Counted from the first letter of the stretch, positions 24,326 to 35,113 are shown. The stretch: 64,000 bases of DNA from Candidatus Taylorbacteria bacterium RIFCSPLOWO2_01_FULL_48_100 (GCA_001821135.1 MHSA01000021.1:3956-67955); one strand, 5' to 3'. Translations and numbers: made by a program. The notes: generated by a model from the sequence alone, not told the origin.

Positions 24326-26196
24326 TCTGCTTCCAGCAGATTTTCAGGAATATCAAAAATAAACTCGGAAGGCAAATTTACTTGCCGCGAACCGAACACA
24401 CTCCGCGCGCCCGCGTACGACAAGAATAATTTTTTGCGTGCGCGCGTGAGCGCCACATAGAAGAGTCGCCGCTCCTCCTCGGATTCCTCTTCTGTAATTT
24501 TGTCCGCATACAACCGAGCGTGAGGGAAAAGCCCGTCTTCAAGACCTGTAATGAACACAGTATCAAACTCAAGCCCTTTTGCCGCGTGTACCGTCATAAG
24601 CCGCACGGCATTTTTTTCTTCTTTCAACTCGTCTTGGTCGCTTTGGAGTGCCGCGTCTGCAAGGAATTGTTCCAATGCTTCGCGCCGTTCAATTCCGTTG
24701 TAACGAGTTGAAAAAGAAATAAGTTCGCGGATGTTTAGAAGCCGTTCTTCGTCTTCCCCGTCGCCATCTTTCAGTGCTTTTTCAAGCCCGCTTTCGGTTA
24801 AGACAAACTTGAGCGCGATGGATAGCGGCTCGGTTTCCAGTTTTTTCTTTATACGCGCGAGTAGCGCGCGGAATGCGGCGATTTTCGTGCGCGTTCCTAG
24901 GGTTATTCCACTTTCTTGTTTCGCGAGTATTTTGAGAAGCGTTACTTTACCGATACCGCGCGTTGGGACATTGATAATGCGTGCAAAGTCAGCGGTATCC
25001 GATTCGCTTAACGCCGCGCGGACATACGAAATAATGTCCTTCACCTCTTTTCGTTCAAAAAACCGCACGCCAATAACCTGATACGGAATATCAGCACCCA
25101 TAAATGCTTCTTCAAGTGCGCGGCTTTGGAAATTGGCGCGGAACAGCACAGCAATTTCTTTCGGTTCTGCCCCACCAGCAATCAATTCGCGCGATTTCTC
25201 TGCGACAAATTGCGCTTCGTGCGCCTCGTCAAACCCAGCAAACAGGTCAATTTTCTCTCCCCCTGAATTTTTCGTAAAGAGCGTTTTTTCCCGCCGATGC
25301 TTGTTCTTTTCAATCACGCGATTTGCGGCATCAAGAATCGTTTGCGTGGAGCGGTAATTTTCTTGGAGCGTTACCACTTTTGCATTCGGCCAGTCCTTTT
25401 CAAACCCCATAATATTTTTCATGCTCGCCCCGCGCCATTGGTAAATATTCTGGTCCACATCCCCCACAACTGCGATGTTTCTGTGCGCCTCCGCGAGCAG
25501 GCGCGCAATGTCGTACTGTACTCGGTTGGTGTCTTGATATTCGTCTATGTGTAGATATTTCCACTGTGTCTGATACGCCTCGCGCACGCCAGTTTCTTTT
25601 TTTAAAAGCAAAGCGGTCTTGAGGAGTAGGTCGTCAAAGTCCAGCGCTTTTTCTTCTGTAAGTATTTTTTCGTACGCGTCCCACACGCGCGACACGACAC
25701 GGGGGAAAAAATCGCTTGCGCGCTCCGCAAACTCATCTGCTGTAACACCCTCTCCTTTTTGTCGGCTGATGGCGCCAAGGATTTTCGGCGGTTCAAAATT
25801 CTTCGGGTCAAAACCAGCGATTTTAGTCGCTTGTTTTATCGCGCGTATGGAATCGCCTCGGTCAAAAATGGTAAAGCGTGGCGAAAGCCCCGCGCGTGTC
25901 GCATTGTCGCGCAAAATACGAACACCAAGAGAGTGAAATGTTGAAATAAACGGCAATTCCGTAACATCTGAAAGCAAGTTGCTAACTCTGTTTCGCATCT
26001 CTTGCGCCGCTTTATTTGTGAATGTAATCGCAAGAATAGATGACGGCTCAACACCGGTTTTTATTAAATGCAAAATGCGGTGCGCAATCACGCGCGTCTT
26101 CCCAGCACCCGCACCAGCGATAATCAAAAGTGGTCCGTCGCGGTGTTCCACCGCCTCACGCTGGCGCGGGTTCAATTCATCAAGATAAGACATCAA
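24286..26196 (-). CDS. UvrD/PcrA/Rep-family ATP-dependent DNA helicase
   Basis: 636 aa. N-terminal LNPRQREAVEHRDGPLLIIAGAGAGKTRV (helicase motif I) plus downstream SF1 helicase motifs. Confidence 0.85.
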   Translation of the reverse strand: MMSYLDELNPRQREAVEHRDGPLLIIAGAGAGKTRVIAHRILHLIKTGVEPSSILAITFTNKAAQEMRNRVSNLLSDVTELPFISTFHSLGVRILRDNATRAGLSPRFTIFDRGDSIRAIKQATKIAGFDPKNFEPPKILGAISRQKGEGVTADEFAERASDFFPRVVSRVWDAYEKILTEEKALDFDDLLLKTALLLKKETGVREAYQTQWKYLHIDEYQDTNRVQYDIARLLAEAHRNIAVVGDVDQNIYQWRGASMKNIMGFEKDWPNAKVVTLQENYRSTQTILDAANRVIEKNKHRREKTLFTKNSGGEKIDLFAGFDEAHEAQFVAEKSRELIAGGAEPKEIAVLFRANFQSRALEEAFMGADIPYQVIGVRFFERKEVKDIISYVRAALSESDTADFARIINVPTRGIGKVTLLKILAKQESGITLGTRTKIAAFRALLARIKKKLETEPLSIALKFVLTESGLEKALKDGDGEDEERLLNIRELISFSTRYNGIERREALEQFLADAALQSDQDELKEEKNAVRLMTVHAAKGLEFDTVFITGLEDGLFPHARLYADKITEEESEEERRLFYVALTRARKKLFLSYAGARSVFGSRQVNLPSEFIFDIPENLLEADIYQSTNGTNVYE

Positions 26197-26215
26197 GAAA
26201 ATATAGCACAGATAA

Positions 26216-26243
26216 AGAAAAATCCCCCAGCGGGGATTTTTCT
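26216..26243. terminator. Bidirectional intrinsic-terminator-like hairpin (aaaaatcccccagcggggatttttct)
   Basis: A perfect 6-bp GC stem with an A-run on one side and a T-run on the other. Nearly identical in form to the hairpin at 49229-49250. Confidence 0.4.
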
Positions 26244-26249
26244 GTGTTT

Positions 26250-26376
26250 CCTCTCGCCCTTATCCTAAGGGGGAGTACCCGAGCGAAGCGAGGGGGAGGG
26301 GGTCGTTCCCGCAAAACCAAATCCACCCCTCCGTCTCCCTACGGGAGACACCTCCCCTTAAGTTAATGGCAGGAGG
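26250..26376 (+). repeat. R1 GC-rich structured repeat, copy 3
   Basis: cctctcgcccttatcctaagggggagtacccgagcgaagcgagggggagggggtcgttcccgcaaaaccaaatccacccctccgtctccctacgggagacacctccccttaagttaatggcaggagg. Confidence 0.7.
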
Positions 26377-26384
26377 AAAAAATA

Positions 26385-28370
26385 CTACCTCCCACCAAAA
26401 AACGCCTTCACAAACCCCCACACATCTGATTCTGGAATGCCTGCGCCGGCAAGTTGTTGAGAAATACCGATGAATGCTCCGGCTTTATACACAATTTCTT
26501 TGGAAACAGATGATGAACAGTTGTCTGTTTCGGTTCCAATACAGAGGCGGAAGTAGTATGAGCCGACGCCAGCAGTCCATGTGTGGGAGACGGTCTGTGT
26601 TCCGCCTGCGGCAAGATTAGCAATCGGGCCGACATTTGCGCTGAAGTCATACCAATTTGCGTTGTTAGATGAGTATTGGAATCGCGCTGGAACTGAGGAA
26701 GTGAGCGCGCCTCCACTGTTTGATACAGTTGAGGTAAGTGTCAGTTGTCCCGCGTAAAGCTTCCCTTCTGTCGCATCTTCTCCTGATATGCTAGGCGTGC
26801 TTGCGTTTAGTTTTGGTGAAGCGGTAGTTGTTGTCGGTGTTGTTGTGGCGGTTGTTGTGGCGGTTGTTGTGGCGGTTGTTGTGGCGGTTTTTGTTGGAGC
26901 TGTTGTTGTTGGTTGCGTAACATTCACCGTTACTGTGTCGGATGCCGTTGCGCTACCGCCATCTTGTTTACAGGTAACTGCATATGTTTTAGAAACAGTC
27001 GCAGTAGTGCGAATCGCCCCAGTCGCTTCCCCAGTTACATCTCCATTACACTGTTCAATCTTTCCAGTGGTTGTATATGAAAGCGCAATCGCTGTTCCAG
27101 CCGCTACTGTTATTGGGCCGTCGCTTGGAATGCTGTTGTTTGTGTATGCTTTGAGGTCTACGGTAATGGGGCTTGCTGGGGCGGTGATGGTGAAGTAGGA
27201 GTCGCTTTCGTCGAAAGCGGCATAAGTGTTTTTCTGCATATTGGAGCAATAGAGGTCAGAATTTGATTGCGGACAAAGTCCGATTTGTAATTTGTAATTG
27301 CCAGTTCTTTGTGCTTCCGGTATTCTCCACTGATAATTTGTTATCCCGGGCGAGAATATCTCCTGACCTAGACCGACAGAAAAATATCCGTCTGGGCCGA
27401 GTAAATTAAGTACAAATTTGTATCCTGCTGATGCCCCTCTCCAAGAAATTGTCTGTGTGGAACCTGTCTGCCAACTCTCTCCCCCATTCGGACTCAACAC
27501 AGTAATACTCGGCTGCGCGGAGGTGGCGGGGGCAGATGAATATATCGTGAATCTACCACCACTGATAGGAAGCGACCCACTTACAGAAGCGGATGTCCTA
27601 ATGGCAACAACTCTAACTGAAAATTCCTTACCATCATATTGACTTATATTAGGGGCCATAACTACACCAAAAGTGAAAACTTGTCCTTCATCAGGGATAA
27701 AACCGGAATAAAGCGCCACCGCTTGATTATTGGTATTGAACGGAATAGGGACAATTGGACCAGATGGTATTGGTGCCACTGTGGTGGAGTAGTTGGAATT
27801 TTCTGGGAAGATAACTACACCAGCAAATGCGTTACGAGGTGCTGTACCAGTTAACTCTAGAACAAAACCTTCAATTTTTTGTAATGGCTTACCACTACTT
27901 TTCAAGGTGATATGGGTTGTCCTAACTGCTGTTCCACTCGCAATGTTTTCCATAGTAGAATTCATTGCTGGAGAAACCTGAATCTCTGTTTGTGTCACCG
28001 GAATCGGCGCGGTAACCGTTGCCTGTCCCGACACATTTACCACCACACTATCATCATCGCGCTCGCCTTCTTTGTTGATGCACGCGACTTTAATAACTGC
28101 GGAACGGCTAATGCGCCCGGCGACTGTGCCCGACAATTTAATATCATTTTTAGACCAATTGCCTCGGCATCGGCTTGCGCCTTCTGATATCCAACTCACG
28201 ACAATGCGACTTCCTTTCTCTACAGTAACAGGCCCATCCTGCCCGTTCACTTTCATATCTACCGACACCGTCTCAAATATATTCTCAAACCCGACATCCT
28301 GCGCCTTTGCGACTGCAACAAACGCAAACACTGCAATACCGACTGCGCCGACATAAAGGAGTTTCCTCAT
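26385..28370 (-). CDS. Large secreted/cell-surface protein with a Thr/Ala-rich linker encoded by a 12-bp tandem repeat
   Basis: Signal peptide MRKLLYVGAVGIAVFAFVAVAKA. Internal TTTAPTKTATTTATTTATTTATTTPTTTT linker encoded by (GTTGTTGTGGCG)x4 at about 26839-26886. The N-terminal ~90-aa domain is paralogous to the C-terminus of the fragmented gene at 31654-32973. Confidence 0.5.
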   Translation of the reverse strand: MRKLLYVGAVGIAVFAFVAVAKAQDVGFENIFETVSVDMKVNGQDGPVTVEKGSRIVVSWISEGASRCRGNWSKNDIKLSGTVAGRISRSAVIKVACINKEGERDDDSVVVNVSGQATVTAPIPVTQTEIQVSPAMNSTMENIASGTAVRTTHITLKSSGKPLQKIEGFVLELTGTAPRNAFAGVVIFPENSNYSTTVAPIPSGPIVPIPFNTNNQAVALYSGFIPDEGQVFTFGVVMAPNISQYDGKEFSVRVVAIRTSASVSGSLPISGGRFTIYSSAPATSAQPSITVLSPNGGESWQTGSTQTISWRGASAGYKFVLNLLGPDGYFSVGLGQEIFSPGITNYQWRIPEAQRTGNYKLQIGLCPQSNSDLYCSNMQKNTYAAFDESDSYFTITAPASPITVDLKAYTNNSIPSDGPITVAAGTAIALSYTTTGKIEQCNGDVTGEATGAIRTTATVSKTYAVTCKQDGGSATASDTVTVNVTQPTTTAPTKTATTTATTTATTTATTTPTTTTASPKLNASTPSISGEDATEGKLYAGQLTLTSTVSNSGGALTSSVPARFQYSSNNANWYDFSANVGPIANLAAGGTQTVSHTWTAGVGSYYFRLCIGTETDNCSSSVSKEIVYKAGAFIGISQQLAGAGIPESDVWGFVKAFFGGR

Positions 28371-28490
28371 CTCGTTAGAGACAGGTCGCGGTCGCCCGCT
28401 TCCCCATCCCGTATGGTTTAATTAACTTTGTAATAAAAATTGAACTAATACGAAAATATAAACCCTCCGCGACCGCTGTCTCTAACGGGA
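28371..28490. repeat. TIR-bounded start-codon-abutting cassette (family R4), copy A: CTCGTTAGAGACAGGTCGCGGTCGC…[AT-rich]…GCGACCGCTGTCTCTAACGGGAT
   Basis: 11-12-bp terminal inverted repeats, subterminal GCGGTCGC/GCGACCGC repeats and an AT-rich core. The inner terminus abuts the ATG (28368-28370) of the surface-protein gene. Confidence 0.65.
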
Positions 28491-28550
28491 TTCATACACC
28501 ACAAGAGTATATCACTGGGGGCGTGCTTATAGACACTGTGGATAAGTGCG

Positions 28551-29237
28551 TTATTTCAGCCCGAGCAGATTTTTTGCAATTCGCGGCACTTCAGCGCGAA
28601 AATAGCTTTTTATATCCTCCCATGTCATGTCAAAAAAGAGCGTGGGCATAAGGTCGTTTTCCGCATCATCAAAATAAGTCATGCTTTTTATGATGTGGTG
28701 ATAGTTATGCGCCACCGTAGGATACTGACGCGGCAACTTTTCAACGACTGATTCAAGCGGCGCGACATTGTTTGCATACCAGTACAAATCCACAAAATCG
28801 CGCTTGCGTCCGCGCTGGCTCATTGCGATAATTTTCATTACGGCGATGTCGTCTTTATCAAGAACGGCAACCGCCCCATATTTCAATGGTGGCACCACAG
28901 GGACAAAAAATGGATATGCGATAAAACTAATTTTTGCTTTACAAAGCGTCCCGTACACCGTTCCTTCTTTTACGATTTTGCCCTGCCAGATGCGATTGTC
29001 TGGAAAATGCCGTGTTATTTCGGCTGGAGCGAAGGTTTTCTCTTGCGTAAAGAAATCAAGGTCAACCGATTGCCGATGCCCAACTTGGAGCGCGAGCGCG
29101 GTTCCGCCAGCAAGATACCATTTTTCTTCTTCAAGCCAGGATTCTTTGCGCGCATACTCAAGAGCTTTTTGCGTTGACCGCGGAAGCGCTTCAAGTTTTG
29201 GCGTCCATTCGTTCATGTTGATAGCATTAAATTCCAA
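28551..29237 (-). CDS. Predicted nucleotidyltransferase (Pol-beta-superfamily minimal NTase motif; AbiEii-like toxin candidate)
   Basis: YLAGGTALALQVGHRQSVDLDFF fits the hG[GS]…DhD NTase signature. It is paralogous to 31035-31652. Its start overlaps the small upstream ORF. Confidence 0.4.
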   Translation of the reverse strand: MEFNAINMNEWTPKLEALPRSTQKALEYARKESWLEEEKWYLAGGTALALQVGHRQSVDLDFFTQEKTFAPAEITRHFPDNRIWQGKIVKEGTVYGTLCKAKISFIAYPFFVPVVPPLKYGAVAVLDKDDIAVMKIIAMSQRGRKRDFVDLYWYANNVAPLESVVEKLPRQYPTVAHNYHHIIKSMTYFDDAENDLMPTLFFDMTWEDIKSYFRAEVPRIAKNLLGLK

Positions 29238-29452
29238 AACGAGCGGGTGGCGGGGAAAAGTCCGCGCGAACGATCGACTACATCGCGTATAAGCGCGTGG
29301 TTATAACGATTCCACATCCAGCGCACTTCGTTGTCATCGCCAAAATCCAAAATCCGCTCAATGATATAGCGCGCGTTTTTTTCAATGTCAATCGTCTTCG
29401 GGTCCACATCCCAAAACAGCGATTGGCGAAATGTGATTTGTTCATTTTTCAT
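29213..29452 (-). CDS. Small 79-aa protein paired with the NTase (candidate antitoxin/partner)
   Basis: Overlaps the NTase start by 25 nt. Paralogous to the 30755-31045 product (shared pattern …W..D…D.DK….II…….G…E.RW….Y…IR…). Confidence 0.3.
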   Translation of the reverse strand: MKNEQITFRQSLFWDVDPKTIDIEKNARYIIERILDFGDDNEVRWMWNRYNHALIRDVVDRSRGLFPATRSFWNLMLST

Positions 29453-29651
29453 ACCCCCTATTATACCATATTTCCTGTGGACAACTCGGTTATAGGCGGT
29501 TGCTTTTTTATGATGTGTGGGATAGTATGAATATGTCGGTTACAGCAGATTTCCCGAGACACCGTTATTTCAAGCCGTTTTCCGAACTACCGCGCGATTA
29601 GCAATTAAACTTTGGCTTATATTACTTACCTTTCAGGCGACAAAGCGTATT

Positions 29652-30680
29652 TTGCGTTCTAACCTTTCTGTAAAGGTTCTTTTTGTTGCCACTGTCTTTT
29701 TTGTTTTTGTAAGTTTACCGCTGGCTGTTGTGCACGCCAGCGTTTTTTCTTTTTTAGAAGAACTAATGTCTCCAAAAGTAAACGCACAAGATTCGCGGGA
29801 AACAGCGAACGGCAATTCGCAGACCATTGAACTGTTGCGCTCCGCGCTAAACTCCGACCCGAACCCGGCGAAGGGCGGCGGAGATATTTCAATTGTCGGA
29901 GGTGCCGCACTTCTTCCCGAGTCAGGTCCGTCTGGAACGATTGCAGATATTTCAGTAGGAAATGTGCATGGCTCTATTAGCGTTTATACCGTGCGTTCGG
30001 GCGATACGCTCTCGCAAATTGCAAAAATGTTCGGCGTGTCAGTGAATACGGTTGTGTGGGCAAACAATATCAAAAACGGCGTTATCCGCCCCGGCGATTC
30101 TCTCGTCATTCTCCCTATTTCCGGAGTACAGCATATCGTAAAGAAAGGCGATACGGTTGCAAGTATTGCAAAAAAGTATAGCGCGGACGCGCGAGAAGTC
30201 GCTCTCTTTAACAATCTTTCCGAAAACGCAAAGCTTGCCGTTGGCGATGAAGTGACTATCCCCGACGGCGAAATGGCGTTCCCCGCATCGTTTGCGCCCG
30301 CGCCGCGCGTGCGCGGCGCGGGCGGCCCAACATACGAAGGGTATTACCTGCGCCCGATTCTCGGCGGGCGGAAGACACAAGGGCTTCACGGCTACAACGG
30401 AGTAGACCTTGCGAGTTACTACGGCGCGCCGGTGTTTGCGTCAGCAGAAGGCGAAGTGATTGTCGCGCGCTACGACGGTTGGAACGGCGGGTACGGCAAG
30501 TATATTGTTATCTCGCATCCGAACGGCACGCAGACGCTATACTCCCACCTTTCGCAAGTCATTACCTATGTCGGCAGGCAGGTTCCGCGCGGCGAGCTCA
30601 TCGGCAACATCGGTTCTACCGGCAACTCCACCGGCCCTCACCTCCACTTTGAAATCCGCGGCGCGCGAAATCCGTTTTAA
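29652..30680 (+). CDS. Secreted LysM-domain M23-family metallopeptidase
   Basis: Signal peptide. Two LysM motifs (YTVRSGDTLSQIAKMFGVSVNTVVWANN; HIVKKGDTVASIAKKYSADAREVALFNN). C-terminal M23 signature …GVDLAS…HLHFEIR. Confidence 0.8.
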   Translation: MRSNLSVKVLFVATVFFVFVSLPLAVVHASVFSFLEELMSPKVNAQDSRETANGNSQTIELLRSALNSDPNPAKGGGDISIVGGAALLPESGPSGTIADISVGNVHGSISVYTVRSGDTLSQIAKMFGVSVNTVVWANNIKNGVIRPGDSLVILPISGVQHIVKKGDTVASIAKKYSADAREVALFNNLSENAKLAVGDEVTIPDGEMAFPASFAPAPRVRGAGGPTYEGYYLRPILGGRKTQGLHGYNGVDLASYYGAPVFASAEGEVIVARYDGWNGGYGKYIVISHPNGTQTLYSHLSQVITYVGRQVPRGELIGNIGSTGNSTGPHLHFEIRGARNPF

Positions 30681-30754
30681 GGAAGTTGGCGTTACGCATT
30701 ATGATTGAGTGAATAAAAAGATTCCGAGAATAGAATATGCTATAATATTTACAT

Positions 30755-31045
30755 ATGAAAGAGAACAGGGGCGTTTTTATACAAAACAAATTACCCAATT
30801 CATTTCGTCCGCTTTTGTGGTCCTTAAAATGGGAGGATGTGGATGTTGACAAAGATAAAAGTGATATTATTCTCGCCGCTGTTAATGAGGGAACTCTTGA
30901 ACAATGGCGCTGGATTATTAGAATGTATGGGCGGGAAGCAATACGGGAAACGCTTGCGAATCGTCTTGCTACAGAATTTCATCCAGAATCCGGTAACTTA
31001 GCAAAAGTTGTCTTTGACTTGCCGAAATTATCATATGCACGATGA
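30755..31045 (+). CDS. Small 96-aa protein paired with the second NTase (paralog of 29213-29452)
   Basis: Same conserved pattern as the other small partner. Directly precedes and overlaps the second NTase ORF. Confidence 0.3.
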   Translation: MKENRGVFIQNKLPNSFRPLLWSLKWEDVDVDKDKSDIILAAVNEGTLEQWRWIIRMYGREAIRETLANRLATEFHPESGNLAKVVFDLPKLSYAR

Positions 31046-31652
31046 GGTTTTAACAAAGTCCGCGGCGGCGCTTCTTCCGTCAATTGTTCGTTTTAGTGAT
31101 TTCTACCTTGCCGGCGGTACGGCGCTCGCCTTACAGATTGGACACAGGCGTTCGGTTGATTTTGACTTGTTTTCAGAAAAAACGCTTCCCGCAGAATTGC
31201 TCCCGCGTGTAAAGCGCGTATGCGCCCCACTGTCAGTTGTTGTTACATATAGTTCTACGGAACAACTCAATGTTCTTATCGGCGGCGTTAAGACGACCTT
31301 TTTGTTTTTTCCTTACCCGGTTATTAATCCGCCAGTCGCGTATCGCGGTATTTCAATCGCGAGCATACGCGAAATTGCCGCAATGAAAGCATTTGCGGTC
31401 GGCAAGCGGCTCTCGTTCAAGGATTATGTTGATTGGTATTTTATGTTGAAAGAAAAATATGTAACGCTTCCAGATGTTATAGCTCTCGCTCAAAAGAAAT
31501 TCGGCGGCGATTTCAATGACCGGCTGTTTCTCGGGCAACTCGTGTCGCTTGCCGATGTTCCTATTCAGTCAATAGATTTCTTGCGCGCCGCGGTTGATAA
31601 AAAAGAAATCACGGAGTTTCTTGAGTATTCTGTAAAGACATTCGCACTCTAA
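31035..31652 (+). CDS. Predicted nucleotidyltransferase, paralog of 28551-29237
   Basis: YLAGGTALALQIGHRRSVDFDLF. The start was moved to MHDEV… because the track's upstream Met overlaps the partner gene. Confidence 0.4.
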   Translation: MHDEVLTKSAAALLPSIVRFSDFYLAGGTALALQIGHRRSVDFDLFSEKTLPAELLPRVKRVCAPLSVVVTYSSTEQLNVLIGGVKTTFLFFPYPVINPPVAYRGISIASIREIAAMKAFAVGKRLSFKDYVDWYFMLKEKYVTLPDVIALAQKKFGGDFNDRLFLGQLVSLADVPIQSIDFLRAAVDKKEITEFLEYSVKTFAL

Positions 31653-31653
31653 C

Positions 31654-32973
31654 GGGATGAAACAAAAACTATCGTTTGCGGTTTCTTTTTTATTGTTAAT
31701 TTCTCCTCTTTTTACTTTCGCGCAAGATGGGCAAAGGAAGCCCAATGCGCGCAAAGAATAGCAGACGCAACTATACTTCAACAAAAAATCTCCGATATAT
31801 CTTCTAGTATTGGTGTGATTGACCGCCTGCTTGATTCTTTGCAAATCACCAAAAAATACACCGATTCGCTCACTAAACTTGATGGCGCATTGTTTATGCT
31901 CGTTCCTTTTGGCGGAGAACAATCACAAAACTATGAACACGCAAATCGCACCGCCATCAAGTGTGTACAAAACCGTGGGGGACCAGTGCCTATTGGTACA
32001 AGTACATACGCAAAAGGTGTTTTGTACACGGAAATAACCGCACCGCAACGGCAACTGGTAACAAAACTCAAAACAGATGCTTCAGCAATTACTACTTATG
32101 TCAGCGAAGAGTTGGAAAAGTCAGAAAATGGGCAGTTGGGAATTGGCGCGACAGTATCTGTTGTAAGAAAAGTGGTTGCGCTTAAATCTGCCGGTGAGAA
32201 AGATTTACTGCCGATTAATCTTGAAGCACTTGCAAAAAATCACTCTTCGCTCAAACCGTAGGAGGGTTTGTCCATCAGTTTTTCAGCAGACGGCAATACT
32301 TTTAATATTCCGAGCGCATTGCGTACCGCACTCGCGCCTGTATTATGGCTCATGGGCATCTCGCTCGGTTCGGAGCCGCTGTCCGGAGGCATTCTTTCTT
32401 TTGACAGCGAAACATTCGGCGTTTTCGTTCCAGAAACAGTTATGCTCAATGAATTTCGTTCTACTATCACTGCGAAGATAAAGGATTTTCAAAATAAAAA
32501 ACAAAAGTATCAACAGATACAAAACACACTGCGGACACAACTTGCCGGTTTGGAAAAGAGCTCTTATCAGTGCGACGCTTCTGTGCTGACGGCGCAGGCG
32601 GAGATTGAAACTATCATCTCAAATGATGGCGATGCGCCTTACCAGGACGCACCGACTTATGCTGGTAATAATGAGCCGCCTGTATCTAACATAAGCGATA
32701 TCGCAAACGAATCCATTTTTGACACCGTATCCGTGAACCTCAAAGTGAACGGTCAAGACGGAACCGTAACCGTTTCGCCAGGTAGCCGTATTGTCCCGAG
32801 TAGGTGCAACCAGATGCAAGGCAAATTGGTCGCGCAATGACCTTAAACTCTCAGGCACGGTTGCCGGTCGCGTCAGTCGTTCCGTAACCGTTAAAGTCGC
32901 TTGCATAGACGCAGACGGAAACCGCGCGGATGATGAAGTGCGGGTGAATGTTGTAAGTGAAGAAATATCATAA
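31654..32973 (+). pseudogene. Fragmented secreted-protein gene (signal-peptide ORF + at least three pieces in different frames); its C-terminal domain is paralogous to the N-terminus of 26385-28370
   Basis: A signal peptide MKQKLSFAVSFLLLISPLFTFAQDG runs into a stop at about 31757. ORFs at 31815-32261, 32268-32840 and 32791-32973 follow in shifted frames. The last two together read …FDTVSVNLKVNGQDGTVTVSPGSRIV…RCKANWSRNDLKLSGTVAGRVSRSVTVKVACIDADGNRADDEVRVNV, matching …FETVSVDMKVNGQDGPVTVEKGSRIV…RCRGNWSKNDIKLSGTVAGRISRSAVIKVACINKEGERDDDSVVVNV. Confidence 0.4.
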
Positions 32974-32977
32974 ACAT

Positions 32978-33523
32978 CTAGATATTAAATCCTATTTTCC
33001 GTATCGGCTTTGTAGGAGGCGCAAGCAGTTGCTTGATTGCTTCAAACACCACCTTGAACTGCTGGTCGTATTTGCTTTCCAGTTTTTCTATTTTCTCCCG
33101 CAGTTCTTTGTTGGTCGCAATGAGTTCTCGCAATTTTGTAAAAGTTCTAATGATTTGTATGTTCACTTGAATGGCGCGTCTGCTATTGAGGACGCTTGAA
33201 AGCATCGCCACACCTTGTTCGGTAAAAGCATGATAACGATAGCGTTGTCCGCCATGACTTGAGGTTCCAATTTGTAACCTCAAGTTCAAGTCCGATTTGG
33301 ATGTCACAATTTGTGACTTCCAAATTTCCATTTCGCGAGCATTCAACTGAAACATAAAGTCAGCCGGAAATCTCTCTATGTTTCTTTTTACCGTTTTATT
33401 CAGATTCTTTGTCTCTGCTCCGTAAAGTTCCGCCAAGTCCTTATCCAACATAACTTTCTTTCCTCGCAACAGGAATATCTTGCCTTCAATTCTGCTATCT
33501 GGAATTATTGCTAGTGTTCGCAT
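32978..33523 (-). CDS. ORF6N-domain protein (phage antirepressor/KilA-N-like DNA-binding domain)
   Basis: N-terminal block …IFLLRGKKVMLDKDLAELYGAETKNLNKTVKRNIERFPADFMFQL… matches the ORF6N pattern. C-terminal coiled coil. Confidence 0.55.
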   Translation of the reverse strand: MRTLAIIPDSRIEGKIFLLRGKKVMLDKDLAELYGAETKNLNKTVKRNIERFPADFMFQLNAREMEIWKSQIVTSKSDLNLRLQIGTSSHGGQRYRYHAFTEQGVAMLSSVLNSRRAIQVNIQIIRTFTKLRELIATNKELREKIEKLESKYDQQFKVVFEAIKQLLAPPTKPIRKIGFNI

Positions 33524-33535
33524 GTTTTGTATTAT

Positions 33536-35113
33536 TTACTGATTGATTATTTGTTTTGGACGGTACGAAAGCGCTTCCAAAATATCGTCCTCCGTTACTT
33601 CATCGCGCTCGGCGAGGTCGGCGATTGTGCGTGCGAGTTTCATCACGCGGTGGTATGAGCGCGCAGAGAGGTCCAACCGTCGCGCGTTTGCGTTCAGCAT
33701 TCCTTTTGTTTTTTCATCAAGCGGGATTATTCTTGCAATATGTTTGGCGGGCGTGTCCGCGTTGGTCTTTGCTTTCAGTTTCGCCTTCTTAAATCGTTCT
33801 TCTTGTCGCTTCCGCGCCGCAATAACGCGCTCCCGCACTTCTTTTGACTCCGAACCATCACGCGCTTCGTCCGAAAGCTTTCCGTACTCAACGGCAGACA
33901 CTTCAATCGCGAGGTCAATGCGGTCAATCACTGGCCCAGAAATCTTCCTGCGGTAGCGCTCCGCGGCGTTAGCTCCGCAAACGCACGATTTTCCTTTTAC
34001 ACCCTTGTTTCCGCACGGGCACGGGTTCATTGCCGCAATCAAGATAAAATGCGCCGGAAAATGTGCAGAGCCCCGTGCGCGCGAAACCGAAATCATCCGC
34101 TCCTCAAGCGGCTCGCGGAGCGTGTCTATCACGCGCCGGTCAAATTCCGGAAACTCATCTAGAAACAAAACGCCTCGGTGCGCGAGCGTTGCTTCACCCG
34201 GCTTTGGAATCGCGCCTCCGCCAGTGATGGAGACATATGAAGATGTGTGGTGTGGGCTGCGCACGGGTGGGTGCGACACAATCGTATCGCGAAGCTTCCC
34301 CGCGACGGAATGTATGCCCGTCACTTCCAGCATTTCTTGAAACGAAAGCGGCGGGAGGAGCCCCGCAAACGCTTTCGCAAGCATTGTCTTACCTGTGCCG
34401 GGCGGGCCCCATAGCAGAATGTTGTGTCCGCCCGCCGCCGCAATTTCCAGCCCGCGCTTCGCGGTTTCCTGTCCTTTGATATCCGACAAATCAATTTGCG
34501 CTTCGGGTGGTTCGTCGGGAATCGCGGTCTCGTGGACTTGCTTCAGCGCGCGTTTTTTTACAAATGGTGTCTCATCTCCGTCTCCCGCAAGGTCTTTGGG
34601 TATAAGGTGTGCGATAACGGCAGTTAAAGTCGGTGCTGCGTACACTTGTATCCCCCGAATAAGCGCGGCTTCGCGCGCATTCCCTTGGGGTACAAATACT
34701 TCTTCAAAATCGCGCTTGCGCGCTTCTTCTACAAGAGGAAGTACACCCGCGACTGGTCTTAGCTCTCCGTCAAGCGAGAGTTCTCCTAGAAAGAGTTTCT
34801 TTTCAGGCGCAAAGCGAATTGCACCTACCGCTTTGAGGTACGCGAGTGCAACGGGCAAGTCAAACGCAGGTCCTTCTTTCTTGAGGTCTGCAGGTGCGAG
34901 CGAAATCGTTACTTTTTGGTTTTTCTGCTTTGGCGACTTGAAGCCGCTATTCTTTATCGCTGCAGAAACGCGGTCGCGAGATTCTTCAACCGCTTTGTCT
35001 GGAAGCCCTACGACGGAAAACGAATGGAGCCCGCCAGCAATGTCCGCTTCAACAGATATGAGATGGGGAGTGAGCAGATGCGTTTCGGCACTCCATACTT
35101 TGGCGAAACTCAT
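33536..35113 (-). CDS. comM: Mg-chelatase-like AAA+ protein YifB/ComM
   Basis: 525 aa. N-terminal Lon-like domain, Walker A LLWGPPGTGKT, C-terminal Mg-chelatase subunit ChlI pattern. Confidence 0.85.
   Translation of the reverse strand: MSFAKVWSAETHLLTPHLISVEADIAGGLHSFSVVGLPDKAVEESRDRVSAAIKNSGFKSPKQKNQKVTISLAPADLKKEGPAFDLPVALAYLKAVGAIRFAPEKKLFLGELSLDGELRPVAGVLPLVEEARKRDFEEVFVPQGNAREAALIRGIQVYAAPTLTAVIAHLIPKDLAGDGDETPFVKKRALKQVHETAIPDEPPEAQIDLSDIKGQETAKRGLEIAAAGGHNILLWGPPGTGKTMLAKAFAGLLPPLSFQEMLEVTGIHSVAGKLRDTIVSHPPVRSPHHTSSYVSITGGGAIPKPGEATLAHRGVLFLDEFPEFDRRVIDTLREPLEERMISVSRARGSAHFPAHFILIAAMNPCPCGNKGVKGKSCVCGANAAERYRRKISGPVIDRIDLAIEVSAVEYGKLSDEARDGSESKEVRERVIAARKRQEERFKKAKLKAKTNADTPAKHIARIIPLDEKTKGMLNANARRLDLSARSYHRVMKLARTIADLAERDEVTEDDILEALSYRPKQIINQ

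Follow-up and report, generated by a model that had tools for sequence, protein, structure and literature searches.

Two DUF6922-AbiEii modules in a Candidatus Taylorbacteria genome: DUF6922 as a candidate antitoxin family for AbiEii/MenT-type nucleotidyltransferases

Nucleotidyltransferase (NTase) toxins of the DUF1814 family, such as those of AbiE and the MenT proteins, are among the most abundant toxins of defence and toxin-antitoxin (TA) systems. MenT1, MenT3, MenT4 and AbiEii add pyrimidines to the 3'-CCA ends of tRNAs and block translation (PMC7450476, PMC10435456, PMC11375011, bioRxiv 10.64898/2026.01.19.700257). Three unrelated types of antitoxin, namely COG5340 (AbiEi and MenA3), COG4861 and the 68-aa MenA1, bind these toxins and induce the autophosphorylation of a Ser/Thr in motif II (PMC11375011, PMC10435456, bioRxiv 10.64898/2026.01.19.700257), and these three are the only DUF1814 partners given in the recent reviews consulted. 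As unrelated antitoxins are already known for DUF1814 toxins, a new partner would be unsurprising in principle, and the convergence of such antitoxins on induced autophosphorylation is of general interest. Here, a stretch of 64,000 nucleotides from Candidatus Taylorbacteria bacterium RIFCSPLOWO2_01_FULL_48_100 (GCA_001821135.1 MHSA01000021.1:3956-67955; hereafter the window, with positions counted from its first letter) was analysed, in which two small modules each pair a DUF1814-type NTase gene (NT1 in module 1 and NT2 in module 2) with a short upstream gene (S1 and S2, respectively) of the Pfam family DUF6922. The results presented below suggest that DUF6922 is a widespread and new family of antitoxins acting on toxins of the AbiEii/MenT type, and by analogy with the characterised systems each module is probably a two-gene TA operon, with the DUF6922 protein as the antitoxin and the NTase as the toxin.

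Both NTases are clear members of this known toxin family. An earlier note on this DNA, made from the sequence alone, had suggested an AbiEii-like toxin, and the assignment to the AbiEii/DUF1814 type was supported by the Pfam model PF08843 (AbiEii; curated cut-off 22.5 bits), which matched NT1 with an E-value of 6.9e-17 (62.6 bits) and NT2 with an E-value of 2.1e-11 (44.6 bits), and by a predicted fold closest to those of MenT1 and MenT4. Four motifs have been described for DUF1814 proteins: I (hGG/S), II (R-x-S/T-x-D-h-D), III (K-x-x-A-x-x-x-R) and IV (+DxxD) (Dy et al. 2014, PMC3985639). In NT1, they are represented by G37 and G38, by R48, S50, D52 and D54, by K128...R135, and by R139 with D140...D143. 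NT2 carries all of the motif residues (G, G, R, S, D, D, K, R, D, D), with K replacing R139. Within the clade, the residues of motifs I-IV were kept in 153-155 of the 155 NTases and the serine at the position of S50 in all 155, so that the conserved motif-II Ser/Thr, a feature of type VII systems, is present.

The spacing of R-x-S-x-D-x-D in NT1 is identical to that of R63/T65/D67/D69 in AbiEii, and S50 aligns, by sequence pattern and not by superposition, with the known phospho-acceptors AbiEii T65, MenT3 S78 and MenT1 T39. The type IV label that the earlier note had attached to such a toxin is out of date, as AbiE has been reclassified as a system of antitoxin-induced autophosphorylation, which is type VII (bioRxiv 10.64898/2026.01.19.700257). 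The top Foldseek matches of the predicted NT1 model (pLDDT 94.1) in the PDB were MenT1 (8an5_B, E 3.2e-5), MenT4 (6y56, E 4.3e-5) and Pb27 (5uvd), followed by other Pol-beta NTases, with moderate TM-scores of 0.39-0.56. The AbiEii models of PADLOC also matched NT1 and NT2, although weakly and partially, and no NCBIfam model matched any of the four proteins (both NTases and both small partners). Against PDB sequences, the NTase profile matched nothing beyond H. pylori JHP933 (4o8s/4ok0), and this weakly, and a single-sequence search with NT1 gave NADH-dehydrogenase matches only, which were rejected as spurious.

For the small partners, the sole Pfam match of both S1 and S2 was DUF6922 (PF21956; curated cut-off 27 bits), with an E-value of 3.3e-17 (62.1 bits) for S1 and 5.4e-11 (42.2 bits) for S2. 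In Pfam, DUF6922 is entered as a domain of 52 residues without an assigned function. It is not named in any paper of the literature searched, and none of the papers listed for AbiEii together with Patescibacteria contained AbiEii. The suggestion of an undescribed family therefore holds in one respect, since DUF6922 is uncharacterised and unnamed in the literature searched, and fails in another, since it is already catalogued as PF21956. The proposed antitoxin role and the near-obligate linkage to AbiEii would go beyond its Pfam name and one-line description. The family is large, as a profile search against 1.84 billion representative proteins gave 2834 clusters at 50% identity (E <= 1e-3); the S2 subfamily makes up 35 clusters, all of them PF21956.

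The AlphaFold2 model of S1 (pLDDT 92.8, pTM 0.84) consists of an extended N-terminal segment, FRQSLFWDVDP, followed by four short helices. The most conserved motif of DUF6922, FRQSLFWDVDPKTID, lies in this extended segment, which is acidic and conserved in both modules (LFWDVDP in module 1 and WEDVDVD in module 2). There was no significant fold match for the S1 model in the PDB or BFVD, AbiEi (6Y8Q) and MenA1 (8AN5) included, and phmmer and profile searches of DUF6922 against PDB sequences, 8AN5 among them, gave nothing below E 0.4. An AbiEi/COG5340 sequence signal was absent from S1 and S2 in the Pfam, NCBIfam and PADLOC scans. PADLOC has no model for DUF6922, and its single match, of SspF to S2 (E 0.011), was judged to be noise. 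Without an AbiEi, PADLOC, NCBIfam or fold match, the partners are not AbiEi, and the earlier note had already found them much smaller than AbiEi.

At the level of the genes a TA pair is strongly supported, and much of this support comes from the very strong linkage of the two genes. By using two narrow peptide patterns, 296 loci were confirmed among the representative genomes of 185,579 GTDB species, and 80 of these, mostly from Patescibacteria, were kept as the DUF6922-seeded set. The loci sampled are the best-scoring relatives of module 1, and for the most distant DUF6922 members the linkage was taken from a few look-ups. The co-occurrence check that had been proposed in the earlier note was run from both genes. 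A full-length NTase gene was found directly downstream and on the same strand in about 70 of the 80 DUF6922-seeded loci, and the others had NTase remnants or no NTase. In the 80 NTase-seeded loci, which were from metagenomes, a full DUF6922 gene was found upstream in 76, three were cut by contig ends and one had a partial gene; an intact NTase without any DUF6922 was therefore seen in none of the 77 informative loci, 76 of which had the full partner. In the locus with the partial gene (L118, ~1100-2136), only a DUF6922 fragment, covering profile positions 44-69, is located 348 nt upstream of an NTase with all catalytic residues intact, and it may reflect a sequencing frameshift or be a genuine exception.

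The linkage also holds in unrelated surroundings. DUF6922 was located immediately 5' of AbiEii in three module-1-type contexts (Minisyncoccales, Ignavibacteriae and Doudnabacteria) and directly upstream of AbiEii genes for proteins of 205-210 aa in three unrelated module-2-type contexts, and the neighbours in these six contexts were otherwise unrelated (tRNA synthetase, MoaC, SecY/adenylate kinase, dUTPase, RtcB and others). The two genes overlapped in 136 of 146 homologous pairs, which suggests that translation of the toxin is coupled to translation of the antitoxin. The identity matrices of DUF6922 and the NTase were also correlated (r = 0.55), a value reached in none of 500 permutations. 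The pair can thus be described as a conserved, portable two-gene unit with TA hallmarks, as its linkage was confirmed from both genes. The system was found mainly in Patescibacteria, with a few DUF6922-seeded records labelled as Ignavibacteriae, Smithella, Bdellovibrionales, Methylomirabilis, Troglogloeales or Pacearchaeota. One contig that carries a module-1-type pair has the label Candidatus Pacearchaeota archaeon (DPANN; L021, 3001-3881), which could be due to transfer between ultra-small bacteria and archaea or to a binning error.

When the pairs decay, they decay unequally. Intact DUF6922 genes were found beside NTase fragments in four loci (L040, L055, L061 and L063) and without an NTase in three others (L047, L071 and L077), and in P0320, a natural in-frame fusion, the NTase is missing its N-terminal part together with motif I. 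As a TA pair predicts that the toxin can be lost first and the antitoxin cannot, this asymmetry is as expected for a TA system. It also bears on another explanation, in which the NTase is a non-toxic enzyme, for instance one with a housekeeping activity on RNA or a small molecule, while DUF6922 serves as a subunit that regulates it or sets its specificity. Non-toxins such as ANT(2'')-Ia and the fungal Pb27 do occur in the DUF1814 superfamily, MenT1 is not toxic in E. coli (PMC10435456) and DUF6922 is unusually well conserved, all of which would suit such an enzyme. However, NTase pseudogenes beside intact DUF6922 genes argue against it, as do the patchy distribution (the 296 matches confirmed by the two narrow patterns among representatives of 185,579 species), the varying genomic contexts, the possibility of several divergent copies in one locus and the indel by which close relatives differ in module 2, as described below. 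We therefore consider a non-toxic enzyme to be very unlikely.

The domain architecture of DUF6922 proteins provides a further line of evidence. Among the best 150 of the 2834 clusters, most proteins are 75-125 aa long. HTH_17 is located N-terminal to DUF6922 in P0286 and P0350 (above the cut-off), and some other DUF6922 proteins carry RelB/ribbon-helix-helix-like or HTH_11-like (winged helix-turn-helix-like) N-termini, below the Pfam cut-off, or a recurrent beta-hairpin N-terminal segment of the form 'IGxKKYAYL', while P0256 contains DUF6922 in tandem. The longer forms likewise have AbiEii downstream, and P0310 and P0335 are complete single-chain DUF6922-AbiEii fusions. As antitoxins are typically built of a DNA-binding domain followed by a neutralising one, DUF6922 is cast as the neutralising part, and S1 and S2 are the minimal form of it, without a DNA-binding domain.

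These fusions are also relevant to whether DUF6922 touches the toxin at all. It could act as a transcriptional repressor or counteract the NTase at the level of its target, as in the classical type IV model that was once put forward for AbiE; a four-helix bundle could in principle bind nucleic acid, and AbiE was long regarded as non-interacting (PMC3985639). However, AbiEi has now been shown to bind AbiEii (bioRxiv 10.64898/2026.01.19.700257), and the S1 model matches no helix-turn-helix or other DNA-binding fold. The fusion of DUF6922 behind HTH_17 and similar domains suggests that DUF6922 itself is not DNA-binding, while the single-chain DUF6922-AbiEii fusions favour physical contact. An antitoxin that works without contact is therefore unlikely.

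In the mechanism proposed here for a TA operon, which follows the example of MenT1, MenT3, MenT4 and the AbiEii of S. agalactiae, the NTase would arrest translation and growth by attaching nucleotides to tRNAs at their 3'-CCA end. The DUF6922 protein would bind the NTase and neutralise it, either by blocking its active site, by inducing autophosphorylation of the motif-II serine S50, or by both, and its acidic N-terminal segment may take the role of the acidic loop (D85/E86) of AbiEi. Each pair would be driven by an extended -10 promoter located 7-8 nt before the start codon, giving a leaderless mRNA.

Several observations weigh against this interpretation. The two proteins are equally conserved, with a mean pairwise identity of 57% for DUF6922 and 56% for the NTase, whereas antitoxins usually evolve faster than toxins. 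No relatives of S1 were found in IMG/VR viral contigs, GenBank phages or PLSDB plasmids, and the usual association with mobile elements was therefore not directly seen. The mechanistic part, which is toxicity, binding and phosphorylation, is argued from analogy with the characterised systems. As MenT4 is not phosphorylated by its antitoxin (bioRxiv 10.64898/2026.01.19.700257), conservation of the serine is no proof of type VII, and the motif-II serine also contributes to catalysis in characterised homologues. The promoters and the leaderless expression are read from consensus matches only, at sites without a -35 element.

All five open reading frames (ORFs) listed in the earlier note were recovered (Table 1), and the translational overlap within each pair was also found, with 4 or 25 nt in module 1 and 11 nt in module 2. 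The two values for module 1 come from two possible starts of NT1. The ATG start gives an ATGA stop/start overlap of 4 nt with S1, and the alternative TTG start at 29237 (28551-29237) gives a protein of 228 aa and an overlap of 25 nt. As the close homologues of NT1 are mostly 215-231 aa long, either start is possible. S1 and S2 are each 100% identical to hypothetical proteins from a Candidatus Taylorbacteria RIFCSPHIGHO2_02_FULL assembly. A hidden Markov model scan of the whole window revealed no further copies of the modules.

Table 1. Positions of the module genes and signals in the window, and of loci in other Patescibacteria that carry paired modules
Feature	Position	Strand	Details
Module 1 small gene (S1), DUF6922, candidate antitoxin	29213-29452	minus	79 aa; PF21956 match
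Module 1 NTase (NT1), AbiEii/MenT-type DUF1814, candidate toxin	28551-29216	minus	221 aa from ATG
Module 2 small gene (S2), divergent DUF6922, candidate antitoxin	30755-31045	plus	96 aa; PF21956 match
Module 2 NTase (NT2), AbiEii/MenT-type DUF1814, candidate toxin	31035-31652	plus	205 aa; ATG at 31035; PF08843 match
Gene between the modules	29652-30680		two LysM domains + Peptidase_M23; Pfam scan
Extended -10 promoter-like TGgTATAAT	29460-29468	minus	7 nt upstream of S1 start codon; read from sequence
Extended -10 promoter-like TGcTATAAT	30738-30746	plus	8 nt upstream of S2 start codon; read from sequence
Paired-module locus L060	1728-2746 + 2956-3231		
Paired-module locus L061	1137-2050 + 2950-3432		
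Paired-module locus L073	3001-3875 + 4255-4923		
Paired-module locus L084	1105-1740 + 1852-2082		

The promoter-like sites in front of S1 and S2 are both perfect extended -10 elements and have counterparts in the homologous loci. A TATAAT was present within 130 nt upstream in 71 of 147 homologous loci, compared with 5% of random windows; 66 of these 71 had the form TGnTATAAT, and an in-frame start codon followed 6-10 nt downstream in 62. This geometry of the -10 element and the start codon would predict leaderless or near-leaderless mRNAs for the operon family. With a promoter at the start codon there is hardly any space for an operator, in keeping with small partners that have no DNA-binding domain. 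No -35 element was evident at the module 1 site, and the extended -10 sites were not reported by a generic promoter scan because the scan requires a -35 element. A second in-frame ATG for S1, considered for a better Shine-Dalgarno spacing, was rejected, as the ATG close by lies in another frame.

A generic terminator scan gave no convincing terminator downstream of module 1 or module 2. Between the NT1 stop codon and the start of the next gene, which encodes a protein of 661 aa, the minus strand (28360-28500) contains a long hairpin (-47.6 kcal/mol, z = -4.15) with arms at 28369-28384 and 28476-28491. This hairpin may terminate transcription of module 1 or be an element in the 5' untranslated region of the downstream gene. 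By blastn, this stretch was not aligned to L008, the close relative described below.

If the modules are TA operons, they could also be dedicated abortive-infection systems against phages, in which DUF6922 is a sensor that frees the NTase on infection, instead of plain addiction or stress modules. This refinement of the TA interpretation is possible, but we hold it only tentatively. Protection against phages is known for AbiE and also for SanaTA and RlegTA, which are DUF1814 systems (PMC3985639, bioRxiv 10.64898/2026.01.19.700257), and NT1 and NT2 match the PADLOC AbiEii models. Other TA modules, HicA and MNT/HepT, are found near a module-2-type locus (L088/L089), and the side-by-side position of two subfamilies in L060, L061, L073, L084 and this window resembles a defence island. 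However, the PADLOC matches are weak and partial and do not extend to DUF6922, for which there is no model, no phage-related trigger was identified, and the flanking genes are mostly housekeeping genes. L088 and L089 (upstream of 4001) are metagenome contigs that share the module-2-type pair and its flanks (dUTPase and methyltransferase) and differ further upstream, with HicA in one and MNT/HepT in the other (L089), which points to a variable, TA-rich neighbourhood.

The earlier note had described the two modules as clear paralog pairs. They are indeed homologues, as the shared NTase stretch YLAGGTALALQxGHRxSVDxDxF is real and both small proteins belong to PF21956, but their closeness was overstated. 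NT1 and NT2 are 36% identical over 127 aa (E 8e-19), and S1 and S2 are 26% identical, with a weak E-value of 0.036. The nearest relatives of NT2 (31-35% identity) belong to 'second' modules, which adjoin module-1-type pairs in L060, L061 and L084. Two different DUF6922/AbiEii subfamilies were found side by side in other Patescibacteria, divergently oriented in L060 and L061 and in tandem in L073 and L084 (Table 1). In L061, the module-1-type NTase is a C-terminal remnant only.

It had also been suggested that the system was duplicated around a secreted peptidoglycan hydrolase. In this reading, a recent inverted duplication around the peptidase gene would have produced a functional unit together with it. 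The mirror-symmetric layout would agree with this, as would a further inverted pair of paralogous secreted-protein domains which flanks the region. However, the identities between the modules are only 36% and 26%, and a DNA repeat search of 25500-34500 found no inverted repeat linking them. A close relative, L008 (Parcubacteria Gr01-1014_17), is collinear with the window over 27996-30679 at 76-78% nucleotide identity (78% over 28558-30679), which covers the start of the 661-aa gene, NT1, S1 and the peptidase gene. The similarity ends at the peptidase stop codon and resumes at ~32667, and no second DUF6922 or NTase was found in L008. As L008 has the peptidase and module 1 but lacks module 2, the two close relatives differ in module 2 by an indel, and this module is not one half of a local duplication.

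In addition, no peptidase was found beside the pair in seven other gene-annotated contexts, and the M23/LysM gene is therefore a bystander. The recent inverted duplication was rejected on these grounds, and we regard it as extremely improbable. We propose instead that the modules come from different subfamilies which would have been acquired or retained independently, and that the peptidase gene would have no functional link to either of them.

One of the flanking domains mentioned above belongs to the 661-aa protein (26385-28370, minus), which is Thr-rich, probably secreted and without a Pfam match. Its N-terminal domain of ~95 residues has an inverted paralogous copy at ~32680-32970 (plus), with 55% identity over 49 aa and 68% over 50 aa. 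This copy is split over two ORFs (32268-32840 and 32791-32973), which makes it frameshifted or a pseudogene, and both domain copies are also present in L008. Within the 661-aa gene, at 26815-26910, there is a 12-nt tandem repeat in which GTTGTTGTGGCG-like units form 6 overlapping copies. On the coding strand this repeat specifies a linker of the (T-T-A-T)n type, and its length could vary. Immediately past the module 2 side, an ORF6N/phage Rha-like regulatory domain protein of 181 aa (32978-33523, minus; PF10543, E 1.6e-32) adjoins a YifB/ComM-type Mg-chelatase-like ATPase (33536-35113), and may be a mobile-element remnant.

An antitoxin role for DUF6922 would be of interest for several reasons. 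As a large family with a different predicted fold, linked to a clade of NTases in which the motif-II serine is invariant, it would allow an independent test of the autophosphorylation model. As PADLOC has no model for the partner, DUF6922 modules are expected to remain uncalled by tools that require AbiEi. This annotation gap would be filled, and the modules are common in Patescibacteria, of which the defence and growth-control repertoire is poorly known. The extended -10 element at the start codon suggests leaderless expression of the TA operons.

A more far-reaching and rather speculative possibility is that DUF6922 forms a fourth, structurally new class of DUF1814 antitoxins, reduced to a minimal four-helix domain without DNA-binding domain, in which the WDVDP segment would reach into the active site of the NTase and trigger autophosphorylation of the serine. 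Expressed from leaderless mRNAs and commonest in the ultra-small, host-dependent Patescibacteria, it could serve these bacteria as a main switch for translation arrest or abortive infection, outside the current defence-annotation models.

Among the described systems, AbiE (Lactococcus and S. agalactiae) and MenAT3/MenAT4 (M. tuberculosis; COG5340 + COG2253/DUF1814) share with the modules the toxin family PF08843, the four motifs and the R-x-S/T-x-D-x-D spacing. The modules resemble AbiE in their bicistronic layout, with the antitoxin gene first and overlapping the toxin gene, and abiEi and abiEii of S. agalactiae overlap by 4 nt as well (PMC3985639). They differ in the partner, which is 79-96 aa here compared with ~200-300 aa, and which has no winged helix-turn-helix, no COG5340 signal and no fold match to 6Y8Q; the order of the genes is therefore that of AbiE, while the upstream COG5340/AbiEi antitoxin with its winged helix-turn-helix is not present. 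The DUF6922 proteins here lack a DNA-binding domain, which makes it unlikely that the antitoxin is autoregulatory.

MenAT1 of M. tuberculosis (MenA1-MenT1, Rv0078B/Rv0078A) is similar in that its DUF1814 NTase is preceded by an antitoxin which is very small and has no DNA-binding domain; MenT1 is also the best structural match of NT1, and the phospho-acceptor Ser/Thr is in the equivalent motif. However, MenA1 is a protein of 68 aa in which a long and a short helix form a V shape, it is partly disordered and 21 homologues have been reported (PMC10435456), whereas DUF6922, with its 2834 clusters, is predicted with confidence to be a globular domain of four helices that carries an extended motif at its N-terminus. 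A partner homologous to MenA1 (Rv0078B) was not found in the modules, as there was no sequence or fold match to the 8AN5 chains. MNT-HepT is also a small two-gene module that includes an NTase of the Pol-beta superfamily and involves covalent modification of the toxin, but there the roles are reversed, with the NTase as the antitoxin, and the families are PF01909/PF18765 instead of PF08843. Compared with these systems, each module is a known toxin together with a catalogued but uncharacterised partner family.

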